64,000 nt of DNA from Bacillota bacterium (GCA_035593725.1 DAOSZN010000011.1:6789-70788), one strand, 5' to 3'. Counted from the first letter of the stretch, positions 3,752 through 15,386 are shown. The notes: a model not told the origin generated them from the letters alone. Numbers and translations: made by a program.

Positions 3752-4783
3752 TTATCCGGACTCATGCAAGTTTAGCAAATCTGATACGGTGAAAAACCGG
3801 TAACCTGCATTCCGTGATGCGTCCACAATTCTTGGAAGGGCTTTGAGGAATACTTTGGTTGGATGAGCCAGGATGATAGCTCCGGGCGCGATTTTCGGCA
3901 CAACTCTTCCTAATATTTTCTCCGGGTCTTCAGTCTTCCAATCAAGTGTGTCAATGGTCCACATTGTTGTTGTATATCCTAATGAAGCAGCTGCCGAAAC
4001 AACTGTCAGGTTGCATTCGCCGTAGGGCGGAGCAAAGAGTTTGCTTGGCTTGACTCCTAAGCTGACAAGGAGCTTCTCATTGTCTGAAATAAGCTGTTTT
4101 ATCATAGGTTCGCTCATTTTCTCCACATGGACATGCTGATATCCGTGGTTCGCCAGCTCATGCCCTTCTTCGCTGATAAACATTACCATGTCTGGGAATT
4201 TCTGAGCCCACTCGCCGTCAATGAAGAATGTTGCCTTCACATTCTGTTCCCTGAAAATTTCAAGTAATTCAGGAAGACAATCTTCGCCCCAAGCTACGTT
4301 CACTGCGATTGCCATAGCCTGTCTTCCTGTATCAACACGGTAAACAGGACTGAAGTGACGCTTGGTTATTGCCGGAGCGATTACAGTTCGCGCTAATTCC
4401 ACGTTATCCCCTGGTTTTGCCTTCATGGAGCGGTCTACAGTCAGATCCACGTCAATATCAAGGCCTGGGGCTTCCGGGATTAACTCGCCTGTCTCCTTAA
4501 AGATCATAGCATCTTTCGGCGCTGTTCGTTCTTGTTCTGCCATGGCTTCTACAATCCGCCTAACCTCATTAGGCAGATATCCTGAGATGAGCCGTGTCTC
4601 CAGGGTAACTCCGGGCTTTACACCGTAGACCATTCGCCTGATATCATCAAGAGATGAGACAAGAACTACCGTGAACACAAAGATTAGAACGGCGAATGCC
4701 ATAAGAAGCGTCATCTCTCGTGTAATCACAATTGCGGTGAGACGGCCTTCACGTTTGGGAGTCAGTCTGTCCTTACGTTTCAT
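3752..4783 (-). CDS. Membrane-anchored polysaccharide deacetylase (CE4/NodB domain), PdaA-like
   Basis: NodB domain with GHELANHGYQH and TxDTLDW-type motifs; N-terminal TM; start ATG at 4783 preceded by AAAGGAGGGA (ORF extends to 4843). Confidence 0.8.
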   Translation of the reverse strand: MKRKDRLTPKREGRLTAIVITREMTLLMAFAVLIFVFTVVLVSSLDDIRRMVYGVKPGVTLETRLISGYLPNEVRRIVEAMAEQERTAPKDAMIFKETGELIPEAPGLDIDVDLTVDRSMKAKPGDNVELARTVIAPAITKRHFSPVYRVDTGRQAMAIAVNVAWGEDCLPELLEIFREQNVKATFFIDGEWAQKFPDMVMFISEEGHELANHGYQHVHVEKMSEPMIKQLISDNEKLLVSLGVKPSKLFAPPYGECNLTVVSAAASLGYTTTMWTIDTLDWKTEDPEKILGRVVPKIAPGAIILAHPTKVFLKALPRIVDASRNAGYRFFTVSDLLNLHESG

Positions 4784-5594
4784 CCAGAAGGTCCCTCCTT
4801 TCGCCCCTGCTTTGTGAGGGCATTTGTATAGGTCGCATTTCACCTGTATGGGGATGTATATAATAATCGCCTTCGAGTAAGAGTTGACTCAAAGGGACTA
4901 TCTTATATCCTTGCTCCATAATCCCTTCAATGATTTGAGGCAAGGCCTCGGGAGTGTTGCGACCTGTCACATGAAACCGGATGATGGCGCCTTTATGCAG
5001 CTTTCTTAGCACCCTCTTTTCCATGTCGTTTGAGGATGTCCCGCGCCAGTCCAACGAATCTATGCTCCACATCACTGTTTCATACCCCAGTTCTCTGGAA
5101 GCCTCTATCACTTTATTGCTGTACTCACCATAAGGAGGCCTAAAAACCTCGGGCGTTTGGCCTGAAACCTTCTCAATGTGTTTATGAGCCTTCTCCAGTT
5201 CCCGTTTGAGCTCAGCTTTAAGAAGAGAGTTGGAGTGAGGAAGGGAATAAGTGTAGTTGCCGAGTTCGTGGTTGCTCTCAATAATCTTGTTTACGGAATC
5301 CCGATGTTTCTCTATCCATTCTCCGGACAAAAAGAAGATTGCGTTGACATTATACCTTTCCAGAACACTTAGGATTTCCAACGTCAGGTCCTTCCCCGAT
5401 TCGCCTTCAAATGTCAAACTGACCTTATTTTCCGGTGTAAACACGGAATACACCGGAACAAGCCTACCGGACACGGTAGCAATAACTGCTTTAGCTGCTG
5501 TGAATAACGCTATTTGAGAGGTATCGATGATAATAAGCAACACTATGAGTATGAGAGCCGGTCTCTTCCAATTTTGTCCGATGACGATCAACAT
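4773..5594 (-). CDS. Polysaccharide deacetylase family protein (CE4 paralog, motifs diverged)
   Basis: NodB-like domain (RPPYGEYS, SIDSLDW) with N-terminal TM; canonical TFDDG reads TFEGES and the His motif reads HELGNYTYS; start 5594 after GGGGAGGA. Confidence 0.75.
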   Translation of the reverse strand: MLIVIGQNWKRPALILIVLLIIIDTSQIALFTAAKAVIATVSGRLVPVYSVFTPENKVSLTFEGESGKDLTLEILSVLERYNVNAIFFLSGEWIEKHRDSVNKIIESNHELGNYTYSLPHSNSLLKAELKRELEKAHKHIEKVSGQTPEVFRPPYGEYSNKVIEASRELGYETVMWSIDSLDWRGTSSNDMEKRVLRKLHKGAIIRFHVTGRNTPEALPQIIEGIMEQGYKIVPLSQLLLEGDYYIHPHTGEMRPIQMPSQSRGERRDLLDET

Positions 5595-5695
5595 TTGAGA
5601 GGTCCTCCCCGGGGAGAGCATTTCCCATAATACTTATGCAGGATCCGGAGACGGAATGCAGGTCTTGGAAAAGTAGCCAGGCGGGAGACACCTGG

Positions 5696-6154
5696 CTACT
5701 TTGCGAAATAGTGATTGCCGATGACAGTCGTGACGGGCCTTGTGAAAATCCAGTAGGATGTGACGCGAGCGGGATTATAGAAATACAGGGCGCCATAAGT
5801 GGGGTCCCGACCTGACAAGGCCTCTCCGGCAGCTCTATAGGAATCCGGGTCCGGTGTGCAGCCAATCTGTCCGTCGTAGACTGACGTGAATGCCCAATCA
5901 TCGTAGATGACACCGGAGACAGTCGAAGGGAACAGAGGACTGCGAACCCTATTCATAACTACAGCGCCAACAGCGACTTTACCGAGGTATGGTTCGCCTC
6001 TTGCTTCACCTGATATTACCTGAGCCAGTAGTTCATAGTCAGATTGTCCTGCGCTCGCAAGGTCCTCCTCTGCGCCTGGAAGACCCATGCATAACACCAT
6101 GAAAGGAGCCAGGACACAAATGAGTATAATGAAATAAGCTTTTCGGTTTCTCAT
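5696..6154 (-). CDS. SleB/CwlJ-family cell wall hydrolase (Hydrolase_2 domain)
   Basis: ISGEARGEPYLGKVAVGAVVMNRV is the SleB/CwlJ catalytic-domain signature; signal peptide; start ATG at 6154 after GGGGG. Confidence 0.75.
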   Translation of the reverse strand: MRNRKAYFIILICVLAPFMVLCMGLPGAEEDLASAGQSDYELLAQVISGEARGEPYLGKVAVGAVVMNRVRSPLFPSTVSGVIYDDWAFTSVYDGQIGCTPDPDSYRAAGEALSGRDPTYGALYFYNPARVTSYWIFTRPVTTVIGNHYFAK

Positions 6155-6273
6155 GGTTTCGCCCCCTTTATGAAAAGACACGAATAACCTCATAAAGGCG
6201 AACTTATGAGCGGATTATAGCATGGGGATCCCGGGAGGACAACCGGAAGATGCTGCTAAAAGAGGAATGAATG

Positions 6274-8448
6274 TTATTGGCTGCCTAGCCATCTCCGGAC
6301 TGAGTCCACAGCTTGGCTGTTGTTTTCCACAGACAGAGTGACGTCGGGAAGCGATGACAGAAAGGCCTTGCCGTACCATTTCCCTACTAAGCGATTATCA
6401 AGGACTACAACAACTCCTCGATCTTCGCTGCTTCTTATTAGACGCCCAAAGCCTTGTCTGAATCTGATTACAGCTGAAGGAAGGGCATAGGACCGAAAAC
6501 CATCGATGTTTTGCGCCCTAAAAGCCTCCATTCTTGCTTCATAAACAGGATTGGTGGGGACTTGAAAAGGAAGTCTCACAAGAATAACGCATGAAAGTGC
6601 ATCGCCAGGGACATCCACGCCTTGCCAGAAACTATCAGCTCCAAGGAGCGCGCCTGGCTCCTCCTGAAAACAAGTAAGCATGCGATGACGGGGCATTGCG
6701 CCTTGCCTGAATACTTTGATGCCTGATTCTTCCAAGGAGGGCCGGATCATCTCTTCAACCTTATCGAGCATAGCATAGGATGTAAACAGCACAAATGCCC
6801 GTCCCTGTGAAGCTTGGATGATTTCAGAGATTAGCTTTGAGGCTTCTTGTATGAATAACGGATGGCGTGGGTCGGGCAAGTCTTTAGGAACTATAAGCAA
6901 GGCTTGATTTGGAAAGTCAAAAGGCGAGTCAAATATGAATTCTAAAGCGGGATCAAGCTGCTCGTCGAGTCCTACCAGGTGTTTGAAAAACTGAAAATCC
7001 CCTCCTACAGTCATTGTTGCTGAGGTAAGGACCGCCGATTCGACCATGTCAAATAAGTGTTCACGGAGATAAGGCGCCACATCAAGTGGTGTGGCGATAA
7101 GTTGAATACCGGTAGGATGGTTTTCGCTCCAGTAGACAAATCCACTGTCTTCCATGGACATGACGAATCTAAGAGATGTGATTTGTGAGGACAGCCTGCC
7201 TACCACGCCTTGGATGTCCCCTTCCAGAGGCTTAAGGCCTGTATCTGATTCACCCTCAAGCACATTAAGGCCTTCCAGGATCTGATTGAGATTTGCCAGC
7301 AGTTCTTGACCTCTGATAATGGCCTTCTCCGCGCTTGGCATAATTATGTCCTGCCACTCGACTGATTCTATCATGTCTTCATTCAGCCTGACTGCGTTAT
7401 TCCCTCTCTGATATTGCGCTAAGACATGCCTTAGGAATTTGCCGAAAGACTCGAAAAATGAAGCGGACGCCTCATAGCTTCGTCGGGTAGCCTCTATTGA
7501 AGAGTCAATCGAAGACACCATCTTCTGCACAAGACTGTCTTTGACTTCAGCTCCGGCAGCAAAAACCGTAGCTCTTAGACTAAACAGCAAACCTCCCCTT
7601 CCGCGACGAGGACCTTCAATGTGAACGAGCTCGCTATGGGCTCTTTTGATATTTCCGAAGGATGCTCTGTATCCTAAATGTTCTTCAGCTACATCAGGAA
7701 TGTTATGAGCCTCGTCCAAAACAAGATATCGGTATTCCGGAAGAACTCGACTGCTTGAGCTATCAGGCATTACTGTCCGTAAGGCAATATCCGAAAGTAA
7801 AAGGTGATGGTTGGTGACTAAGATATCAGCCTCTTCCATCTGTGATCGCGCTTTCAGAAAATAGCACCTTTTGCGCCACGGACATCGAGTCCTGAGACAA
7901 GACATGGAATCCGATGAAACGCTGTCCCAGATCTCGCCCGGCGCCTCCAGATGAAAGTCAGATCTGGACCCTGTTGGGACATTCGCCAATTCGCTGATGA
8001 ACTCAGCGAACGCCAACCTGAAATCGTCCGAGGTCTCGTCTTCCATTTCATTTGAAAGAATTGCAAGCTTTCTATGGCAGACGTAGTTGGATCTTCCTTT
8101 GACCAAACAATACCGAAACTCCACTTCCAGGCAGTCAGCAAGGGAAGGAAGGTCTTTCTGAATAAGCTGTTCTTGAAGGTTAATGGTATTTGTGGATATT
8201 ACTATCTTGTTTCCTGTGGCAGAAGCCCATAGGATAGCAGGAACAAGGTAAGCGACGGACTTGCCTGTGCCTGTGCCGCTTTCCATAAGTGCGTGGCGGG
8301 ATGTCAAGAAACTGCGCAACACCATATGAGCCATTTGTTGCTGGGATTCTCGAAATTCGTATCTGGGCAAGGCTTTTGCCAAAAGGCCTTCAGGCTCAAA
8401 TATCGTTCGTATTTTTTCTTGAATCCGGTCTTGTTTAAGCTCTGCCAA
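6274..8448 (-). CDS. dinG: DinG/XPD(Rad3)-family ATP-dependent DNA helicase with Fe-S cluster domain
   Basis: Walker A ESGTGTGKS; DEAH box LVLDEAHNI; four-Cys Fe-S insert (CHRK...C...CPWRKRC); helicase C-terminal motifs. Confidence 0.8.
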   Translation of the reverse strand: MAELKQDRIQEKIRTIFEPEGLLAKALPRYEFRESQQQMAHMVLRSFLTSRHALMESGTGTGKSVAYLVPAILWASATGNKIVISTNTINLQEQLIQKDLPSLADCLEVEFRYCLVKGRSNYVCHRKLAILSNEMEDETSDDFRLAFAEFISELANVPTGSRSDFHLEAPGEIWDSVSSDSMSCLRTRCPWRKRCYFLKARSQMEEADILVTNHHLLLSDIALRTVMPDSSSSRVLPEYRYLVLDEAHNIPDVAEEHLGYRASFGNIKRAHSELVHIEGPRRGRGGLLFSLRATVFAAGAEVKDSLVQKMVSSIDSSIEATRRSYEASASFFESFGKFLRHVLAQYQRGNNAVRLNEDMIESVEWQDIIMPSAEKAIIRGQELLANLNQILEGLNVLEGESDTGLKPLEGDIQGVVGRLSSQITSLRFVMSMEDSGFVYWSENHPTGIQLIATPLDVAPYLREHLFDMVESAVLTSATMTVGGDFQFFKHLVGLDEQLDPALEFIFDSPFDFPNQALLIVPKDLPDPRHPLFIQEASKLISEIIQASQGRAFVLFTSYAMLDKVEEMIRPSLEESGIKVFRQGAMPRHRMLTCFQEEPGALLGADSFWQGVDVPGDALSCVILVRLPFQVPTNPVYEARMEAFRAQNIDGFRSYALPSAVIRFRQGFGRLIRSSEDRGVVVVLDNRLVGKWYGKAFLSSLPDVTLSVENNSQAVDSVRRWLGSQ

Positions 8449-9312
8449 CTACCATATCACCGCCTCTTGGGCAAGACGTCTGATAGCAGCAAGATTCCGC
8501 CTATCATCTTCAATGCCCTTCTTCGGCGTTTCCAGAATAAAGGGCACCTCACGAAGTTTGGAGTTTCCGAGGATAACGCGAAACCCTTCCTCTCCTATCA
8601 TGCCGGATCCGATATCCGCATGGCGGTCAAGACGGGATCCTAAAACACCCATTGAATCATTGGCATGAACAAGGGCGACACGGGACATTCCAAGAATTTC
8701 ATCCAATTGTCCTAAGGTTTTGGCAAGTCCTTCTCTCGTCGCTATATCATAACCTGCTGCGAACATGTGGCAGGTGTCCAGACAGATTCCAAGAGGCACC
8801 GAATCTGATATATCCATTATGTCTCTTTGATGTTCAAACATCCATCCGATTTCAGTTCCGGCGCCTGAAACCATTTCAAGAAGGAGCAGTAATCCATCGC
8901 CCGGCAAGAGCTCTGCCATATCGCATGCTTTCGTAATTGCCTCTCTGATTCTCTTAATGCCCGCTTCTACGCCTGAACCTAGGTGATTACCGGGATGAAT
9001 GACCAGATAGTCTGCTTCGAGACATTGGCAACCTGCAATTTCATGGGCAAGAGCCCGAACTGATACTTCATATGTCTCTTCTTTGGGCGAAGCAAGGTTA
9101 AGAAGGTACGGGGCGTGAATAGCCAACGGTCTTATGTCTTTTTCGATAAGGCTCTGCTTGAAAGCTGAAGCCTCATCTTCATGGATGGCCTTGTGCCTAA
9201 GACTCCTAGGATTCCCGGCGAACATCTGAATAGTGTCACACTCAAGGAGAGTAGCGTCATCCAGCGCCTTATTAAGGCCTCCTGCTTTGCTTACGTGCAC
9301 ACCGAATCTCAT
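8449..9312 (-). CDS. nfo: Endonuclease IV (AP endonuclease family 2)
   Basis: TIM-barrel Nfo signature blocks (HAPYLLNLAS, HPG..., LLLLEM.SG); abuts dinG with no gap. Confidence 0.9.
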   Translation of the reverse strand: MRFGVHVSKAGGLNKALDDATLLECDTIQMFAGNPRSLRHKAIHEDEASAFKQSLIEKDIRPLAIHAPYLLNLASPKEETYEVSVRALAHEIAGCQCLEADYLVIHPGNHLGSGVEAGIKRIREAITKACDMAELLPGDGLLLLLEMVSGAGTEIGWMFEHQRDIMDISDSVPLGICLDTCHMFAAGYDIATREGLAKTLGQLDEILGMSRVALVHANDSMGVLGSRLDRHADIGSGMIGEEGFRVILGNSKLREVPFILETPKKGIEDDRRNLAAIRRLAQEAVIW

Positions 9313-9374
9313 AATCAGGTACCTCCTGTCCAGGTATTCGATGTGAGATATGAGTTTCCTGCACGTTACGACTT

Positions 9375-10172
9375 TTAGCTGCGCCCTAACCTGTCAATGA
9401 AACGGAGTACAGAGTTTCCGTCAATGGCTTTTGAAAGGGAACGTCGTTCCGAGTAGATATGGACCAAGATAAGGAATAGGAGCGCCAAGGCCTTCACAAA
9501 GACCGCAAGACGCGACGCGATCCAATAACCAAGCGCTGCTCCCAGTGGATTTGCGCCTGCGTCTCCCATCATACATTCCTCGCTCAACTCATCATTTAGC
9601 GCTGCCAGTACGCCTCCGGCAAGCCCTACAGAAACCAGTCCGGCAGATGAATGATAGTCACCCAAAAGAAGCAGTGCCAAGATTATGGAAAAAGCCTTAA
9701 TTGAACGGAGGGGCCGAAGGTCCAAGAGATTCATGAAGTTTGCAGCAAGACTTATTAAGGTGGCGTCAAAAACAAGTATGAACAAGGGCTTTGCGCCCCT
9801 TGAAACTGTGACGGAGACGAAAGCAAGGGACCATATGATCACAGCTTTAAGCAACCCTGTTGTCATTTGTCGCTCTTTTACGGAGGTTTTCACATGGCCG
9901 ATTAAGCCCCTGGATGCATCTGAGCTGCATACATCGTCAATAAGGCCTACAAGTGAAGAGCCTACCACCAATAGAAGGCATAAAAGAGCGCTCTGCGCTT
10001 TTAAGCTGGTGAATCCGTACAAAACTACGGCAATCATAGCAGCGAAGGAAGCGGAAGTGACGAAGATAACCCCTGCTGAAGTCGGAATTTGCTTGCCTGA
10101 ATAATTCTTGCGAACCAGTCCGGATAAGCCCAGCAATCTTAGGATTGGTTTTTTCATGAATCCGGCAAGCAA
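9375..10172 (-). CDS. Short MraY/WecA-like (GT4-family) polyprenyl-phosphate sugar-1-phosphate transferase, multi-TM
   Basis: Several TM helices; LIDDVCSSD (DDxxD-like); NFMNLLD (NxxNxxD-like); MMGDAGANPLG resembling the MraY/WecA FMGDxGS motif; only 265 aa. Confidence 0.5.
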   Translation of the reverse strand: MLAGFMKKPILRLLGLSGLVRKNYSGKQIPTSAGVIFVTSASFAAMIAVVLYGFTSLKAQSALLCLLLVVGSSLVGLIDDVCSSDASRGLIGHVKTSVKERQMTTGLLKAVIIWSLAFVSVTVSRGAKPLFILVFDATLISLAANFMNLLDLRPLRSIKAFSIILALLLLGDYHSSAGLVSVGLAGGVLAALNDELSEECMMGDAGANPLGAALGYWIASRLAVFVKALALLFLILVHIYSERRSLSKAIDGNSVLRFIDRLGRS

Positions 10173-10250
10173 AAATGAGATAATGCCGCATGTGAGTAAA
10201 TCCGTGGAGATTTCTCCTTATGTTCCAAGTTTACACTCTAAATAGCCTGT

Positions 10251-10967
10251 TTAGTTGACACATCTTTCAGCGACAGCCTTCGCAACCCAGTAAAACTGGT
10301 GTGCTCTATGGGAAAACCCTGCTAAATTCCACCCTGTGACTCTATGTGCCATTTCACAGTCGACCTCGAGAATCCGCAAGCCTTGACGCAACGCGTCAAT
10401 AGTAAGACCAACTTCTACTCCGAAACCCGGTGCAAAAGGCATAAGTCTGAGGAAGATAGGGCGTCTTGCGGCTCTCTGTCCGGAAAGAATTGAAGTCAAC
10501 TCACTTTTGCAAAGCCGCCTTACACCCCAATAGGCTGTTGATTTCACAATGCCGAGACCTCTGGGCCTGACGTTGGGAAGCTGCGGAAAACGCGCGACAG
10601 TCATATCAGCTTCGCAAGTCGCAATAGGTTCAATTAGCCTCGCAATCTCCCTCGCGGTTTCACCTATGTCAGCATCCAGAAAGACCACGATATCTCCTTG
10701 GGATTTCAGAGTTCCTTGCATTAGAGCAGCTCCCTTCCCCGCCCTTCGAGGCATCGGAATCACCGTGGCGCCTGCAGTTTGAGCTTTTCTTAGCGTGTCA
10801 TCCCGGGAACAGTCGTCAACTACAATCACCTCGCCTACCTCAGAGGATGGTTGTGTCAATGCCAAGACTGTTGAGGTTATTCTCTCTTCTTCGTTGTAAG
10901 CTGGGATGACTACTGAGATCATCATAGACTCGTCAGTCTCCGTCAATAATGTTGGCAAGCTGCTCAA
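10251..10967 (-). CDS. Family 2 glycosyltransferase (dolichyl/polyprenyl-phosphate sugar synthase-like)
   Basis: ISVVIPAYNEEERI, VIVVDDCSRDDT, FLDADI (DxD); TTG start at 10967 overlaps upstream gene, alternative ATG at 10925. Confidence 0.8.
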   Translation of the reverse strand: MSSLPTLLTETDESMMISVVIPAYNEEERITSTVLALTQPSSEVGEVIVVDDCSRDDTLRKAQTAGATVIPMPRRAGKGAALMQGTLKSQGDIVVFLDADIGETAREIARLIEPIATCEADMTVARFPQLPNVRPRGLGIVKSTAYWGVRRLCKSELTSILSGQRAARRPIFLRLMPFAPGFGVEVGLTIDALRQGLRILEVDCEMAHRVTGWNLAGFSHRAHQFYWVAKAVAERCVN

Positions 10968-11775
10968 TTAGGGCAAAACGCCCCATCGGGGTATCCACCT
11001 GCTCTATTGTGGGTATGTCCTGACGTTGATATTCAGTAATGAAAGAAAAGTCCGCATTTCTCGATTCGGCAATAACAGCAGGCATACCTAGTTCTTGAAA
11101 GGCTTTAACAAGGGGGATATCCGTGTAGATAGGCGTATGGGCAGGATCTCTGCTGCCTCCGGCGATTATGACTGCATCGCATATCGCTGTCTCGAAAAGG
11201 TCTATCTCGAGATACTCAGTTCGTAAGAGAGTATCAATTTCAGGCGAATACGAAGTTTTATCTTGAACAACCAGTGCAGCAACAGAATCAGCGAGTTTTT
11301 GCCCTACCGTGCCACAGGAAGGCTTGCTAATACCGTAGACCGCGCCGAGCTCTTTAGCGTCTTCAGAGGTGACGGGTTCAAGTCGTTTTGTTACATAGAC
11401 TACCTGGGTCACTCTTGCGCCTGCGTCTCTCAGCGAAGCTGTCACAGTAGCGGTTTCTTCATGTGACAATCCTTGACCTGGCACTACCATAGCTATACGC
11501 TTTCCGTCCAGCCTACCGCAAATGAGTTTTGTCAGCGCCATTTCTCCGAAGGCTATCGAGTTTTCCAGCAAAGACTCGGTTCCTACAAGTTTTGCGTAAA
11601 GTGCTTCACGGTCTTTTCGAATCAAGGTGAATTCCGATTCAATTCTGTCAATGAGCGTTTGCTGATGCCTCACCAAGGTATCATCTTTTACTATGATGCT
11701 TCCTAGGAAGATTCCCAGACCTAATGCGAAGAATATCGCTACGGTCGAAGCAATATGGTGCCTGAAAGTTATCAT
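10933..11775 (-). CDS. MctB-family (SteB-like) membrane protein
   Basis: N-terminal TM (IASTVAIFFALGLGIFLGSII) plus extracytoplasmic domain of the MctB family architecture; start 11775 after AAGGAGAG; sits between steA-like gene and GT2. Confidence 0.6.
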   Translation of the reverse strand: MITFRHHIASTVAIFFALGLGIFLGSIIVKDDTLVRHQQTLIDRIESEFTLIRKDREALYAKLVGTESLLENSIAFGEMALTKLICGRLDGKRIAMVVPGQGLSHEETATVTASLRDAGARVTQVVYVTKRLEPVTSEDAKELGAVYGISKPSCGTVGQKLADSVAALVVQDKTSYSPEIDTLLRTEYLEIDLFETAICDAVIIAGGSRDPAHTPIYTDIPLVKAFQELGMPAVIAESRNADFSFITEYQRQDIPTIEQVDTPMGRFALIEQLANIIDGD

Positions 11776-11806
11776 TCTCTGCGCGCTCTCCTTATGCCCC
11801 TTTCTG

Positions 11807-12931
11807 TCAAACAGGCCAGGTTGCAAGCTTCAATTGCATAATGATGAGCCTCAGAAACTGCCTTATGATTTGGGACGCCGCTACACTGGTGGAGAGCGGA
11901 ATAAGGCCGGCCAAGGCTACCTTGGCGACATCCTTGCCATGCGCGTTCCTATAAAGCTTGCTTATGCCTTTTGCGTCAATAAGGACTGACCCCACTTTCA
12001 TTCGTACAAGAAAAGTGCTTGCCATTCCTTTACGCCCTTTGTCGAGAAAATCTTCGACTGACGAATGGCCTCCCACAATTACGATGAGTTCAGCGCCTTT
12101 CTCGTAGGCAAGCAGGAGTGCCAGGTCTTCACTGATCCCGGGGGCTTGACATTCCACTGCCTCAAGTCCGAGCTGCTTTAACCTGTCTCTTCCCGGGGAT
12201 TCCCCATTGGGGTAAACGTGCACCAGAAGCTCAGAACCGTGTTTTAATGCCCGGTCGCTTGCGCTGTCCATGTCCCCTATGATGATATGCGGTGCGATAC
12301 CTAAACGCAAAAGCGTATCTGCAGCCCCGTCCACAGCGATGACAACAGGCCTCATTTCATCAATGTAAGGCCTGATTGCCCTAAGATCGTCATAGTATCC
12401 CCGTCCCCTCGCCACGACAAGGACATGTTTCTTGGCAATCTTTGTGCGAATGCGTGGGAAGCTGATGTCTCTTAAGATAATCGATCTTTCTTGCTTTGCA
12501 TGTTCTATTGTGTTGAGAATGAATGCGTCAACGTGGTCAGATAGGCATGTTCTCGCCTCTTTCAATTTCTCCAAGACTTCGGCTTTGGTGACAATTATTC
12601 CTTGACAAACCGGCCTTCCGTTCTTCATTAATGTGTTGCCGGAGATCTCCACAATCTCCCCGTCCCTCACAGTTTCCATCACCTTAGGTCCTACACGATC
12701 TAACAAACAAATCCCGGCATCGCATAGATGAAGCGGGCCAGGATTGTAATACTTGCCTGTAATGGAAGCTTTAACGTTGACGACTCCTCGAACCCCTGCT
12801 TGTATCAGCGCATCACAAGCTACCTGATCGATATCTTCGTGATCCAGAATTGCGATTTCCCCTCGACATACGCGAGAGATAAGGCTTTTCGTTCTTCTGT
12901 CCAGTCTCGCTACGCCCTTGACCTTCATCAA
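11807..12931 (-). CDS. steA: SteA-like putative cytokinetic ring protein (thiamine pyrophosphokinase catalytic-like domain)
   Basis: TPK-like motif VIAVDGAADTLL...PHIIIGDMDS; about 370 aa; paired with MctB-family gene as in actinobacterial steA loci. Confidence 0.6.
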   Translation of the reverse strand: MMKVKGVARLDRRTKSLISRVCRGEIAILDHEDIDQVACDALIQAGVRGVVNVKASITGKYYNPGPLHLCDAGICLLDRVGPKVMETVRDGEIVEISGNTLMKNGRPVCQGIIVTKAEVLEKLKEARTCLSDHVDAFILNTIEHAKQERSIILRDISFPRIRTKIAKKHVLVVARGRGYYDDLRAIRPYIDEMRPVVIAVDGAADTLLRLGIAPHIIIGDMDSASDRALKHGSELLVHVYPNGESPGRDRLKQLGLEAVECQAPGISEDLALLLAYEKGAELIVIVGGHSSVEDFLDKGRKGMASTFLVRMKVGSVLIDAKGISKLYRNAHGKDVAKVALAGLIPLSTSVAASQIIRQFLRLIIMQLKLATWPV

Positions 12932-13091
12932 GTCACCCTTTGAAGGCCCTGGCGATGCCCTTCCTACGCTGCTACCTCCGGTTGGTCTCCTTCATAGATA
13001 GTATGTATTACCTGAAACTTTATCATTCCATCGTGTATCCGGATCCGACTTTGGATAAATCACTCAATTATGAGAACGTTGGGAAATGAAC

Positions 13092-13874
13092 CTAACTTGC
13101 TCTGATATCAAGGCGAATCTTATCAGCTATTCTGGCAATAAAAGCAGAGTTTGTGGGTTTTCCTTTTTCGCTGCTGACTGTGTATCCAAATAAGCTGTTT
13201 AAGAGTTCGATATTTCCTCTGGTCCAAGCGATTTCTATCGCATGTCTGATAGCCCGTTCCACTCTTGCTGCGGTAGTATCAAATATCTCAGCTACGCGCG
13301 GATACAGTTCCTTCGTGACACTGTTTAAGAGGGTAGGTTCACCTATTACAAGGATGATCGCTTCTCTGATGTAAGTGTAACCCCTGATATTCGCAGGAAT
13401 TCCCATATCATGGATAAGTCTTGTCACCTCTGAATGAAGATCCCTTGGGGGAGGAACGTAGTCTACTGTCTTTCTTCCTTTAATTTCTTGTGGTGACGAC
13501 ATTACTTGGCGTATCCTGTCTGCCAATGTTTGAACGTCAAAGGGTTTTACAACGTAGTAGTCTGCTCCCATCTCAGTAAGTTGCTGTATTATTCGCTCTT
13601 GGCCCAGGGCAGTGAGAACCACGAATCTTGGCTGATGGTTTGAATGCTGTTCAGAAAGGCGCTCAAGCACTCCCACACCGTCCAAGTGAGGCATGATAAT
13701 GTCAAGAACCACAACATCAGGCTCCAACTCTGATATCTTCCTTAGAGCCTCAATGCCGTCATATGCCACCCCAACCACTGACATATCAGACTGTGAATTA
13801 AGAAATCCTTTTAAGAGATCACACAAATCATGGTTATCATCAACTATTAGAACACGTGTAGCGCCCTGTCCCAT
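13092..13874 (-). CDS. spo0A: Stage 0 sporulation protein A (response regulator, Spo0A_C DNA-binding domain)
   Basis: Receiver domain (RVLIVDDN...VLDIIMPHLDG) and the Spo0A-specific C-terminal domain (IHDMGIPANIRGYTYIREAI); ATG at 13874 (MGQGATRV) preferred over ORF start 13946. Confidence 0.93.
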   Translation of the reverse strand: MGQGATRVLIVDDNHDLCDLLKGFLNSQSDMSVVGVAYDGIEALRKISELEPDVVVLDIIMPHLDGVGVLERLSEQHSNHQPRFVVLTALGQERIIQQLTEMGADYYVVKPFDVQTLADRIRQVMSSPQEIKGRKTVDYVPPPRDLHSEVTRLIHDMGIPANIRGYTYIREAIILVIGEPTLLNSVTKELYPRVAEIFDTTAARVERAIRHAIEIAWTRGNIELLNSLFGYTVSSEKGKPTNSAFIARIADKIRLDIRAS

Positions 13875-13912
13875 GATACCACCCCAATCAATACTCCTTG
13901 GATTAGAGACTG

Positions 13913-13919
13913 TGTCGAC
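13913..13919. promoter_or_regulatory. 0A-box-like heptamer TGTCGAC (6/7 to TGTCGAA) in the spo0A leader
   Basis: Between the candidate sigma-H promoter and the spo0A start; matches the Spo0A-box only if start 13874 is correct. Confidence 0.25.
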
Positions 13920-13937
13920 TTCCCTGACGCCGTATGA

Positions 13938-13963
13938 ATTCGCCATCTCATAGCGAACTCCTC
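13938..13963 (-). promoter_or_regulatory. Candidate sigma-H type promoter in the spoIVB-spo0A intergenic region (GAGGAGTT-N11-GGCGAAT)
   Basis: Minus strand -35-like GAGGAGTT (RAGGAWWT), 11-nt spacer, -10-like GGCGAAT (RNNGAAT), about 65 nt upstream of the proposed spo0A ATG. Confidence 0.3.
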
Positions 13964-14012
13964 CTGAATTGCCAAAAATCCCACAATTGTCTTAACCTAC
14001 TGTGTAATGAGA

Positions 14013-15386
14013 CTATCGTGATAATGCCGGTTGATCCAAGATTCCTAAGTATTCATCCTGAGGCAGCATGAAACCTGCGTCTCGCACAAGCCACTCAGCA
14101 AGAACGCCGTATCCTCTCGTCTGATCTGATACAAACACATGGGTCAATACGCCTGCCAGCTTGTTGTTTTGGATGATGGGACTGCCTGACATGCCTTGCA
14201 CTATGCCACCGGTCATTGACAGTAGGCGCGGATCAGTGACTCGAACCACTAATCCTTTGATTTGAGGGCTTGTTTGGCGTGTTACCCGCTGAATTTCCAC
14301 CTGAAATTGCTCTATTCTGTCTTCTTGTAAGACTGTATAAAGGTAGGCAGGGCCGGGCACAACTTCGTCTGCAAGGGCTACGGGAATCGGTTCCGAAAAA
14401 TGAGGATTGACAGGCTTAGTATTGAGTCTGCCGAAAATACCGAATTTTGTATTACGCTCTATTGTTCCGATTATGTCTTCTTCTCCGCTGAAACTACCTA
14501 TTTTCTCTCCTGGCTGGCCATGGCTGCCCTGGTGAATACCGAGAATTTGAGCGGTAACTATCATGCCGCTGGTTACATCCATCTCCCTATTGGTAGAGAC
14601 ATCTGTAATTACGTGCCCTAGTGCACAGTAAAGACCTGATGTAGGATGGTAAAAAGACAGAGTGCCTACGCCGGCGGCATTTTCTCGAACCCATATGCCC
14701 AATCTATAATAGGTTTCCTTTTCGCCTATGGATACCTCAGCCTCATCGGACAGGCTTTCATCATAGACAGGAACCGGCTTCAGCCTCACCGTAATTTTCT
14801 TGGAATTGCGTAGGATGTTGAGTTCTGCTTGCCTACCGCTTCTGCCGATGTCGTCTATTGTGCGTTCTACCTGCGATTTGCTGTTGATAGCTTGTCCATT
14901 GATGCGAAGAATAACATCTCCAACCTCTATACCTGCTTCACGTGCAGGATAGTGCCAGCTGCCGTCAGGCCCGATTATGGGATAATGCCCTATCACCACG
15001 ACGCCTCCGGAAGGCAGCAGAACCCCAATGGAGTGGCCTCCGGGAAACACCCGGACCTCCGGAACCACGCTGACAATCATTCGCTTGAGTGGGATCAAAT
15101 CCCAGAGACGCACTTCGAGGCTGCTTTCGCCTTGACTTAAGGAAACAAGCTTTACTCCGCCGTTAAAAGGTAAGAGCTCCAGGCCTGAGGTGGTTGTGCG
15201 TAAGTCAAGGGGCCGGCCTAGTTGAATCTCCTTGGTATTCCCTTCAATAAGTGTGATTCTGCCCGGTATTCCGCCAACGGTGAGGAAATAAGCAGCAAGA
15301 CATACCAGTGCAAGCACTATGAATCTCTGGATAAGTTGAATTCCAAAATGCGGATTTTTCTTATTCGGCGGTTGATGCAGCCCCAA
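14013..15386 (-). CDS. spoIVB: SpoIVB stage IV sporulation serine peptidase (PDZ + S55 domain)
   Basis: PDZ segment (GIEVGDVILRINGQAINS) and S55 catalytic region (GTLSFYHPTSGLYCALGH); classic position immediately upstream of spo0A. Confidence 0.9.
   Translation of the reverse strand: MGLHQPPNKKNPHFGIQLIQRFIVLALVCLAAYFLTVGGIPGRITLIEGNTKEIQLGRPLDLRTTTSGLELLPFNGGVKLVSLSQGESSLEVRLWDLIPLKRMIVSVVPEVRVFPGGHSIGVLLPSGGVVVIGHYPIIGPDGSWHYPAREAGIEVGDVILRINGQAINSKSQVERTIDDIGRSGRQAELNILRNSKKITVRLKPVPVYDESLSDEAEVSIGEKETYYRLGIWVRENAAGVGTLSFYHPTSGLYCALGHVITDVSTNREMDVTSGMIVTAQILGIHQGSHGQPGEKIGSFSGEEDIIGTIERNTKFGIFGRLNTKPVNPHFSEPIPVALADEVVPGPAYLYTVLQEDRIEQFQVEIQRVTRQTSPQIKGLVVRVTDPRLLSMTGGIVQGMSGSPIIQNNKLAGVLTHVFVSDQTRGYGVLAEWLVRDAGFMLPQDEYLGILDQPALSR

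Follow-up and report, generated by a model that had tools for sequence, protein, structure and literature searches.

Homologues of steA and steB adjoin two transferase-like genes downstream of spo0A in a spore-forming Firmicute

The gene set downstream of spo0A

The window analysed here, a stretch of 64,000 nucleotides from a Bacillota bacterium (GCA_035593725.1, DAOSZN010000011.1:6789-70788), carries four minus-strand genes directly downstream of spo0A: steA, a steB/MctB homologue, a gene for a GT2 glycosyltransferase and a short gene for a PNPT-like membrane protein. All four open reading frames of a sequence-only reading were recovered, as were the motifs that it quoted: GDMDS at SteA residues 218-222, VIPAYNEEERI and DAD in the GT2 protein, and GLIDDVCSSD, ANFMNLLD and MMGDAGANPLG in the fourth protein. 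The gene immediately upstream, spo0A (13092..13946, minus strand), scores 357.7 bits against TIGR02875 and has the Pfam Spo0A_C and Response_reg domains; spoIVB (14013-15386) lies beyond it. The 163-nt spacer between spo0A and steA holds a low-confidence candidate for a forespore-type (sigma-G-like) promoter (12999..13028, minus strand), with the pattern GAATG-N18-CATACTA, which we take to follow the sigma-G consensus. This pattern is identical in locus L003 although the spacer there has diverged, and it is matched in just 2 of 29 other Bacillota loci, where 0.43 would be expected. On the downstream side, nfo (endonuclease IV; 8449..9312, minus strand; 244 bits against TIGR00587) follows 62 nt after the set and outside the conserved module, and it abuts a gene for a DinG/YoaA-like helicase (6274..8448, minus strand) that has the Pfam domains Helicase_C_2 and DEAD_2 and scores 567.8 bits against NF053712, below the cutoff of 680. 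In close relatives, too, nfo follows the PNPT-like gene, but among 74 more distant loci just 2 have this order.

The junction lengths first proposed for these genes were arithmetically right for the starts then chosen, but the likely starts differ. The likely start of steA is ATG 12928 and that of steB is ATG 11775, the methionine at which the PF11382 match begins, leaving a 31-nt gap after steA. The GT2 gene likely starts at ATG 10925, so that 7 nt separate it from steB where a 35-nt overlap had been proposed, and its product has a 100% identical, 224-aa twin in NCBI (P0089).

SteA (11807..12928, minus strand) is a TPK/MptE-like nucleotide-binding protein of the cytoplasm that carries a single TM helix near its C-terminus, predicted at residues 337-355. 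Its residues 4-369 match positions 1-367 of NF040608 (division_SteA) with 445.5 bits, well above the cutoff of 150, which confirms the family assignment made earlier; it also matches PF04263 (33.9 bits), PF12555 (SteA-like_C; 29.1 bits) and the crystal structures 9hmy (E = 1.6e-67) and 9hmz (E = 3.7e-41). The TPK-like domain, the C-terminal anchor and an adjacent steB, by which membership of the family was judged, are all present. The steB product (10933..11775, minus strand) was likewise correctly assigned to the MctB family, since residues 18-291 of the long open reading frame match PF11382 with E = 5.1e-31 and 108.9 bits (gathering score 25.6). It is bitopic: an N-terminal TM helix (6-32) is followed by a helix of 55 residues and by an alpha/beta domain outside the cytoplasm. 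The sequence of SteB ectodomains is poorly conserved between phyla. The eight best Foldseek matches to the AF2 model (pLDDT 83) were to MtSteB (9hle), SteB-RipA (9hmx), MctB (9m9z and 9ma1) and Cg1604 (8au6), with E values from 1e-11 to 2e-8; the ninth follows at 1.7e-3. In Mycobacteriales, the SteA-SteB pair (Rv1697-Rv1698/MctB; Cg1603-Cg1604) spans the membrane and regulates RipA, a septal D,L-endopeptidase. Either GDP or UDP stabilises the C. glutamicum SteA protein (CgSteA), whereas ADP and NTPs do not (PMC12977500).

A soluble glycosyltransferase and a short PNPT-like membrane protein

The third gene (10251..10925, minus strand) encodes a GT-A glycosyltransferase of 224 aa (Pfam GT2, PF00535, E = 1.2e-23), which is soluble, with no predicted TM segment. 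The motifs PAxNEE, DxSxDxT, GKG, DAD, SGQR and HR..Q are invariant in its family, and the nucleotide-sugar and DxD residues are intact. Its best PDB match, and the sole alignment that covers most of the protein, is to GpgS (4y6n, E = 2.4e-18, residues 3-184), while enzymes of the DPMS, ArnC and GtrB type match just the N-terminal nucleotide-binding ~100 residues at ~1e-9, with the PDB matches to DPMS and ArnC confined to residues 1-103. The protein falls under every NCBIfam cutoff, including those of its best match, the GpgS model NF010496 (99.4 bits, cutoff 262), and of the polyprenyl-phosphate glycosyltransferase models AglJ (85.6 against 325), PpgS (49 against 370) and ArnC (45 against 529). 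An earlier designation as a polyprenyl-P-sugar synthase is therefore not supported for this soluble protein. The GpgS matches, in the model library as among solved structures, would favour instead a glucosyl-3-phosphoglycerate synthase, making glucosylglycerate as a compatible solute or MGLP precursor in a module that would be metabolic. We consider this very unlikely, because the score is far under the cutoff, the protein is ~100 residues shorter than GpgS and in two lineages GT2 forms a single polypeptide with a membrane PNPT fold (see below); furthermore, the GpgS segment GGGRVTE, which presumably includes contacts to 3-PGA, aligns to RGLGIVK in the window protein.

The last gene of the set (9375..10211, minus strand) has an uncertain 5' end. 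Its first canonical start is TTG 10172, and conserved coding extends to 10217. Because the in-frame codons 10217-10173 (GEISTDLLTCGIISF) are kept in relatives, with third-position changes that are mostly synonymous, and fold as TM1, translation certainly begins upstream of TTG 10172. No ATG, GTG or TTG occurs between an in-frame TAA (10220-10218) and 10172, and therefore the candidates are non-canonical starts, ATC 10211 and ATT 10184.

The product, with nine predicted TM helices, has no Pfam match at E<=0.01, PF00953 included, and scores 19.9 bits against TIGR00445 (cutoff 192). PF00953 thus does not recognise the window protein itself. For its family, 88 homologues were found; of 70 members, 43 match PF00953 (best 8.5e-14), and MraY structures come up at E = 3.4e-8 when the family profile is used as the query. 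The AF2 model (pLDDT 95.1, pTM 0.92) has MraY or DPAGT1 exclusively as its 35 best PDB matches in Foldseek, with query-normalised TM-scores of 0.57-0.71. By this model the protein has the MraY/WecA/GPT (PNPT) fold, and the MraY/WecA likeness suspected from its motifs is upheld. A search at E<=1e-30 returned 1,955 cluster representatives, nearly all of them 265-300 aa long and aligned to the profile over its full length. Because so many proteins are similarly short, and because N36, D92, D93, H106, K122, N158, N161, D164, P167, R169, D217, G219 and D273 are invariant in 70 sequences, this is a distinct subfamily rather than a truncation.

The conserved residues divide between a retained core and an altered nucleotide pocket. 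D92 and D93 align with D115 and D116 of E. coli MraY, and D217 with D267, so that the catalytic acids are present. The loop-C signature NxxNxxDGxDG is incomplete: N158, N161 and D164 are kept, whereas D198 of MraY is replaced by the invariant Pro167, followed by the invariant Arg169, and other uridine-pocket positions (the loop-A Lys and the TM8 Asn) are replaced as well. Loop E of PNPT enzymes carries a conserved His motif. No equivalent of MraY loop E or TM10 was found in the family: profile-to-MraY alignments end at MraY residue 284-303, the model stops after TM9 with two short helices, and the family consensus has no His-rich motif after TM9. The description of this protein as a GT4-type initiating phosphotransferase consequently went too far; with a separate subfamily, an altered uridine pocket and an unmatched loop E/TM10, UDP-HexNAc-type initiation is no more than a possibility.

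Because the uridine-binding positions of MraY are replaced and loop E is unmatched, the protein could be non-catalytic or act on an unrelated substrate. It might be a lipid-binding pseudo-enzyme that makes no lipid-linked glycan but anchors or regulates SteA or SteAB, perhaps as a sensor of how much undecaprenyl phosphate or lipid II is available; its sub-threshold scores in Pfam and TIGRFAM, the lack of a TM10 match and the fact that its invariant neighbour is SteA, not GT2, would agree with this. We nevertheless judge such a role unlikely. Throughout 70 diverse sequences, the MraY core keeps its acidic and Asn residues (DD, NxxNxxD, MGD) unchanged, and the new polar residues H106, K122, R169 and D273 are invariant as well, a pattern that one expects in an active site rather than in a scaffold. 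In addition, the fusion of this protein to a glycosyltransferase with an intact DxD suggests substrate hand-over.

Linkage across three phyla and natural fusions

Synteny was counted in the 68 loci of Bacillota, Actinomycetota and Armatimonadota whose upstream sequence was long enough. In every one of them the PNPT-like gene is <=3 kb away from steA, and in 67 it is downstream of steA, the exception being a locus (L039) with the order GT4L-steA-steB; steB is found in 65 of the loci and GT2 in 40. Linkage extends over Clostridia, Halanaerobiales, Paenibacillus, Tumebacillus, Solirubrobacterales, Thermoleophilia, Acidimicrobiia, Coriobacteriales, Micromonosporaceae and Armatimonadota. The arrangement, found again in 80 genomes of three phyla, far exceeds what chance would produce, and the module in the window is one copy of an old, conserved set of steA, steB, GT2 and the PNPT-like gene. 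GT2 is missing from ~40% of loci (Solirubrobacterales, Thermoleophilia and Micromonosporaceae), and a two-enzyme scheme is thus not universal.

Two independent GT2-PNPT fusion proteins were found. In P0088, which is encoded right after mctB and occurs in two independent assemblies, GT2 is joined at cytoplasmic loop A and TM1 is deleted; in P0290, also 3' of mctB, GT2 is followed by an extra TM helix, TM1 and then the PNPT fold. Both are consistent in topology with a cytoplasmic GT2. Conservation in three phyla and these fusions support the earlier proposal that the four genes are one functional unit. Synteny and fusions show that the proteins of the module work together and are silent on what they do.

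Mycobacterial-type steAB loci have neither GT2 nor the PNPT-like gene in any case (0/49). Their order is recN-steA-mctB-pyrG, and in C. glutamicum steAB are the final genes of their operon. Because SteAB works without either transferase in Mycobacteriales, coupling between them is not obligatory. The association of steAB with transferases had been described as a feature of this Firmicute, when it is in fact widespread, with Mycobacteriales as the lineage that is without transferases. Nor is the spo0A adjacency special, as had been supposed: it is inherited from an ancestral recN-steA neighbourhood into which spoIVB-spo0A was inserted in spore formers. The position of SteAB downstream of spo0A in Clostridia has already been published (mBio 2026; PMC12977500). 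In the literature, no published account of the linkage of steAB to transferases was found. The four-gene set is common to three phyla and absent from the mycobacteria where SteAB was studied, and the transferase linkage offers a concrete lead toward the nucleotide ligand of SteA.

A WecA or TagO enzyme followed by a second transferase is a classic linkage-unit pair, and the transferases might make a cell-wall glycopolymer linkage unit or other envelope glycolipid unrelated to SteAB, with adjacency a relic of the inherited recN-to-pyrG gene order. Conserved order can persist without a functional link, and loci that lack the transferases still have recN, steAB and pyrG in synteny. This explanation is improbable in our view, since the linkage, found at every locus tested, outlasts big rearrangements of its surroundings: in Tumebacillus, moa genes lie upstream while spo0A and recN are absent, Paenibacillus has lost steB and kept steA-GT2-GT4L, L039 keeps adjacency in a permuted order and the flanks vary by phylum (nfo versus pyrG). 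Gene overlaps of 1-4 nt are also common.

Proposed role and relation to known systems

This analysis establishes what the proteins are and how they fold, their synteny across phyla, the fusions and the lack of both transferases at mycobacterial-type loci; beyond this, we infer catalytic activities, substrates and a coupling to SteAB signalling. The reading that we lean toward, with somewhat better than even confidence, is of a conserved four-gene envelope module in which the PNPT-like protein and GT2 make a lipid-linked intermediate that is coupled through SteA to SteAB hydrolase control. SteA-SteB would act as the transmembrane regulator of a septal peptidoglycan hydrolase, with the SteA pocket in the cytoplasm and the SteB ectodomain outside, and the PNPT-like protein and GT2 would work as two physically coupled enzymes on the cytoplasmic side of the membrane. 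Retaining the Mg2+/phosphate-transfer core of MraY/WecA (DD, NxxNxxD, MGD) but with a rebuilt nucleotide pocket, the PNPT-like protein may take a phospho-group from a nucleotide-activated donor and pass it to a lipid phosphate, be it polyprenyl phosphate or a different one. GT2, with its intact DxD, may add a hexose from a UDP- or GDP-sugar afterwards, or supply it first. SteA, the invariant partner of the PNPT-like protein, would bind UDP or GDP as the nucleotide substrate or product, and through the SteA-SteB TM bundle this lipid-linked step would be linked to how the hydrolase is positioned on the outside. From the original idea of a lipid-linked glycan-building pair, this keeps the MraY/WecA-like protein and the functional unit; the remainder claimed too much, given that GT2 is closest to GpgS.

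A bolder extension, speculative and improbable in our estimation, is that SteA and the short PNPT-like protein constitute a new two-component lipid-phosphate transferase whose product is extended by GT2, with this product or UDP/GDP switching on SteAB hydrolysis. If so, the TPK-like domain of SteA would provide the nucleotide-donor site that the PNPT-like protein has apparently lost, and the lipid-linked glyco-intermediate, or released UDP/GDP, would be the long-sought on-signal for SteAB-controlled hydrolysis of septal (or sporulation-septum) peptidoglycan. On this view, SteAB of mycobacteria would be what is left after reduction, the sensing half only.

In comparison with the mycobacterial system, SteA is homologous over its full length, sharing the TPK-like pocket and C-terminal TM helix, and SteB is alike in fold and topology; both gene pairs are adjacent, in equal order and in a recN neighbourhood. 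They differ in that here and in most non-mycobacterial lineages GT2 and the PNPT-like gene come after the pair, in the pocket motif of SteA (GDMDS, the canonical TPK type, versus GDPDQ in crystallised SteA) and in the host, a spore-forming Firmicute without a mycomembrane. GT2 has the GT-A fold, PAxNEE, GKG and DxD in common with GpgS (GT81) and with small GT-A GT2 enzymes (DPMS, ArnC, GtrB). Its C-terminal half (LSGQRA...PFAPGFGVEVGL) resembles GpgS; unlike DPMS, GtrB and ArnC it lacks a TM or amphipathic C-terminal region, and its fusion to a PNPT-like protein in some lineages sets it apart from all four. With MraY, WecA, TagO and DPAGT1 the PNPT-like protein shares its predicted fold, for which only PNPT structures were matched, as well as the DD after TM3, NxxNxxD, the Asp of MGD on TM8 and a probable active site on the cytoplasmic face. 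It has ~270 aa and 9 TM helices rather than 320-410 aa and 10-11, a short C-terminal LRxLDxLGR segment with an invariant Asp where MraY has loop E/TM10, and the new invariant motifs RGxxGH and TTGxxK. Finally, the PNPT-like gene always adjoins steA and does not lie in a dcw, O-antigen or teichoic-acid locus.

Organization of the module in the window

Four open reading frames running from 12931 to 9375 on the minus strand of the window encode SteA, SteB (MctB family), a GT2 glycosyltransferase and a short MraY/WecA/GPT-fold membrane protein, hereafter PNPT-like. A six-frame ORF list and the coding-strand sequence confirmed this same-strand run, which the sequence-only reading had described, and all of the motifs that it had quoted from the four ORFs were present. 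The module is preceded by spoIVB (15386-14013, minus) and spo0A (13946-13092, minus) and followed by nfo (9312-8449, minus) and a DinG/YoaA-like helicase gene (8448-6274, minus). The junction distances are right for the starts used in that reading, but the likely starts differ from those of the longest ORFs: steA begins at ATG 12928; the Pfam match of the MctB-like gene (10933-11775, minus) opens exactly at the Met of ATG 11775, leaving a gap of 31 nt to steA; and GT2 likely begins at ATG 10925, after a gap of 7 nt.

The first canonical start codon of the fourth gene is TTG 10172. However, the in-frame codons 10217-10173 encode GEISTDLLTCGIISF, which is kept in relatives with mostly synonymous, third-position nucleotide changes and which forms the first transmembrane helix in the structure model. 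TTG 10172 lies too far downstream to be the start. The frame is closed by TAA 10220-10218, which falls within an AAGGAG Shine-Dalgarno-like sequence, and ATG, GTG and TTG are absent from this frame between that codon and TTG 10172. ATC 10211 and ATT 10184 are candidate starts, and the gene may be initiated at ATC or ATT. Close relatives start at GTG or TTG codons at varying positions, and the fourth gene of the related locus L003 also has no canonical start. GT2 and the fourth gene share one reading frame in the window and L003; stop-codon read-through from GT2 into the fourth gene was ruled out in the window, where two in-frame TAA codons intervene.

On the coding strand, no intrinsic terminator was found between the module genes; the one hairpin seen, within the fourth gene, is weak and no better than chance. 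Counts of promoter- and terminator-like signals were at shuffle level, and no signal above that level parts the genes. Nor was a riboswitch or other Rfam RNA element found at E<=1 in 9000-14100, the spo0A-steA spacer included. This spacer carries a candidate sigma-G-like promoter, GAATG-N18-CATACTA (12999-13028, minus), which we take to fit the sigma-G-type forespore consensus; both elements are identical in L003 though the spacer has diverged. The motif was confined to the window, L003 and L011 and is not enriched in other Bacillota (2/29 loci versus 0.43 expected); sigma-E, -F, -K and -A patterns showed no enrichment there either, and a sporulation promoter was rejected as a general feature upstream of steA. 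Compared with 163 nt in the window, the spo0A-steA gap measures only ~7-80 nt in the Bacillota loci L025, L037, L040, L012, L078 and L080, where transcription from spo0A may continue into steA. Downstream of the helicase gene, the window (4773-6193, minus) holds ORFs of 165 and 282 aa, whose syntenic counterparts in L003 (12005-14401) have a polysaccharide deacetylase domain and a Hydrolase_2 domain of the SleB/CwlJ type; genes for the spore cortex and for germination may thus be common in the wider surroundings.

Identities, folds and topologies of the four proteins

Identities, folds and topologies could be established for all four products. The placements in the SteA and MctB families, proposed from sequence, were upheld by profile searches: SteA scored 445.5 bits against NCBIfam NF040608 (cutoff 150) and the MctB-like protein matched PF11382 at E = 5e-31. 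SteA also matches PF12555 and the TPK catalytic domain, aligns with the mycobacterial-type SteA crystal structure 9hmy at E = 1.6e-67 and has a single C-terminal transmembrane helix. A PDB sequence search with SteB gave no match, while the eight best fold matches of its AlphaFold model (pLDDT 83) were only M. tuberculosis SteB/MctB and C. glutamicum Cg1604 (9hle, 9m9z, 9ma1, 9hmx with RipA, and 8au6 for Cg1604; E 1e-11 to 2e-8), the next match lying at E = 1.7e-3. Close homologues of SteB are named "copper transporter" at NCBI (P0354, P0360, P0364, P0365), a name that goes back to what was first proposed for MctB; the role has been argued against (PMC12977500, the 2026 SteAB paper). This annotation is corrected here, and so are the labels "hypothetical" and "WecA-like" that the PNPT-like protein bears.

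GT2 (224 aa; 100% identical to the NCBI protein P0089) matches PF00535 and has no transmembrane segment. Of the solved structures, GpgS (glucosyl-3-phosphoglycerate synthase) alone is related to it over nearly the full length (E = 2.4e-18, residues 3-184), matches to DPMS, ArnC and GtrB-like structures being confined to the N-terminal ~100 residues. Despite this relationship it is highly improbable that GT2 is a true GpgS, and the assignment was rejected: GT2 falls under every NCBIfam cutoff, scoring 99 with the GpgS model against a cutoff of 262, and its length also speaks against it. All 46 orthologues share the same nucleotide-sugar and DxD residues, so GT2 looks catalytically competent.

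The sequence-only reading had proposed PF00953 as a check on the fourth protein. The window protein itself gave no match in a direct Pfam scan with either start; many of 88 homologues of like length carry PF00953, which was matched by 43/70 aligned family members. The family profile matched MraY structures at E = 3.4e-8, spanning MraY residues 29-284, and the 35 best PDB matches of the structure model (pLDDT 95.1, pTM 0.92) were all MraY or human DPAGT1, with query-normalised TM-scores of 0.57-0.71. Several lines of evidence, from sequence and from this model, thus indicate a PNPT fold. An exhaustive profile search recovered 1,955 PNPT-like representatives at E<=1e-30 (clusters at 50% identity, about 2,000). 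Almost all of these are 265-300 aa long and align with the profile over its whole length, so being short is a defining trait of the family, and the fourth protein is not an ordinary MraY or WecA. One protein of the representative library, P0227 (1005 aa), has the GT4-like domain at 2-271 and a C-terminal extension of ~720 aa, in which several more hydrophobic stretches occur and Pfam gave no match at E<=0.001.

Conservation, fusion and loss of the transferase genes

A scan with the PNPT-like family alignment, at one genome per species, returned at least 582 loci. In the best 80 of these, ORFs were called and scored with phmmer and HMMs, and synteny was counted in the 68 whose upstream DNA extended for 3.2 kb or more. 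Within this sample, drawn from the best 80 of at least 582 loci, steA lay upstream of the PNPT-like gene on the same strand in 67/68, and the remaining locus, L039, has the order recN-GT4L-steA-steB (GT4L, the PNPT-like gene); the neighbourhood seen in the window recurs, with steA within 3 kb of the PNPT-like gene in all 68. In the same sample steB was present in 65 and GT2 in 40. Since steB and GT2 are missing from some loci, the invariant pair of this sample is steA and the PNPT-like gene. Two Paenibacillus species (L023, L060) and L047 carry steA-GT2-GT4L, and a family HMM found no steB/mctB anywhere in these loci, up to 20 kb; the link between SteA and the transferases can therefore exist without SteB.

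The module crosses phyla. Its order is (recN)-spoIVB-spo0A-steA-steB-GT2-GT4L in Bacillota, recN-steA-steB-GT4L-pyrG in Solirubrobacterales, Thermoleophilia and Micromonosporaceae, and recN-steA-steB-GT2-GT4L(-pyrG) in other Actinomycetota and Armatimonadota. The adjacency to spo0A stems from a recN-steA neighbourhood that is older. Downstream, nfo and dinG come after the module in close relatives but in just 2/74 distant loci. In Tumebacillus the four genes, with 4-nt overlaps, stand in an unrelated neighbourhood. It is distinctly unlikely that the transferases form an unrelated wall-polymer linkage-unit pair that lies nearby through inherited gene order. In L002, L015, L079 and other Actinomycetota loci, a 4-nt overlap between the GT4-like gene and pyrG (CTP synthase) is frequent, which suggests translational coupling; where the transferases are absent, pyrG comes directly after steB. 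Two loci lie on contigs of MAGs whose labels, 'Bifidobacterium breve' (L052) and 'Caulobacteraceae' (L047), look out of keeping with the rest of the distribution, and mis-binning is likely; L052 scores resemble those of Solirubrobacterales loci, and Bifidobacterium is reported to be without SteAB (PMC12977500).

GT2 and the PNPT-like protein also occur joined, in two different natural fusions. In P0088 (406 aa), found directly after mctB in independent assemblies from two samples, GT2 is joined at cytoplasmic loop A of the PNPT-like part and TM1 is gone, while P0290 (527 aa), also after mctB, retains TM1 with an extra transmembrane helix before it. Because both would keep GT2 in the cytoplasm by predicted topology, they look as genuine fusions would, with the partners side by side at the inner membrane face.

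As a negative control, 80 metagenomic loci were examined in which SteA shares 83-93% identity with the mycobacterial-type protein that was crystallised, of which 49 had at least 3.5 kb downstream. GT2 or a PNPT-like gene was found in 0/49, steA-mctB-pyrG in 47/49, and recN upstream in 36 of the latter; both transferases have been lost in these loci. The window SteA has the canonical TPK motif GDMDS versus GDPDQ in the crystallised protein, which differs at 4 of the 11 positions whose conservation among module-linked SteAs reaches 98% or more. Weak but consistent evidence thus suggests that SteA constraint was relaxed after the transferases were lost.

A possible pathway and its relation to SteAB and MraY

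At the septum, SteAB forms a transmembrane complex by which the hydrolase RipA is positioned and activated (PMC6705760; PMC12977500). Its control of RipA, the chief hydrolase for cell separation in M. tuberculosis, was shown recently, and the one clue to its activating signal is that SteA binds a molecule containing UDP or GDP. The conserved pocket of SteA is similar to the phosphonucleotide-binding sites of TPK and CstII, and CgSteA is stabilised by GDP or UDP, its ligand being unknown (PMC12977500). That steAB occurs immediately downstream of spo0A in a subset of Bacillota, mainly Clostridia, is already known (PMC12977500). Neither PMC6705760 nor PMC12977500 mentions a glycosyltransferase or MraY-like neighbour of steAB, and no report of the transferase linkage or of clostridial SteA function was found in the literature searched, which covered part of the journals; the four-gene module, the short PNPT-like subfamily and its strict steA association appear not to have been described previously. 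Outside Mycobacteriales, the sampled steA neighbours include a dedicated membrane MraY-like protein, joined by GT2 in 40/68 loci, both being predicted to use nucleotide substrates. This linkage leads to a definite hypothesis about what SteA might sense or help to produce.

On balance, we lean towards the four proteins acting in one pathway. The PNPT-like protein would be an active Mg2+-dependent phosphotransferase acting on polyprenyl or another lipid phosphate, with a donor whose nucleotide part is unlike that used by MraY and WecA; GT2 would draw on a UDP- or GDP-sugar, either adding to that intermediate or helping to supply it; SteA would bind a nucleotide substrate or product; and pairing of its transmembrane helix with SteB would tie the lipid-linked step to hydrolase control outside the membrane. 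The question of the SteA ligand is now open to specific experiments, for which Clostridia, Paenibacillus and Actinoplanes are tractable carriers.

Profile alignment to E. coli MraY and family alignments showed that the acidic residues D115, D116 and D267 are kept as invariant D92, D93 and D217 of the PNPT-like protein, and N189, N192 and D195 as N158, N161 and D164. In contrast, MraY D198, the second Asp of DGLDG, is replaced by an invariant Pro followed by an invariant Arg, and the loop-A Lys and TM8 Asn are also replaced; from MraY-inhibitor structures, we take these three residues to line the uridine pocket. A non-catalytic, lipid-sensing subunit, which the replaced pocket residues would favour, seems unlikely beside the acidic residues that are kept, and a putative phosphotransferase is the preferred reading. 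Loop E and the last transmembrane helix of MraY have no matching segment in the family, in which TM9 is followed by no more than a short C-terminal LRxLDxLGR segment containing an invariant Asp, while RGxxGH and TTGxxK are invariant motifs that are new with respect to MraY. PNPT-like proteins make up a large branch of the MraY/WecA superfamily that has gone unannotated, in a superfamily that ranks among the major classes of antibiotic target.
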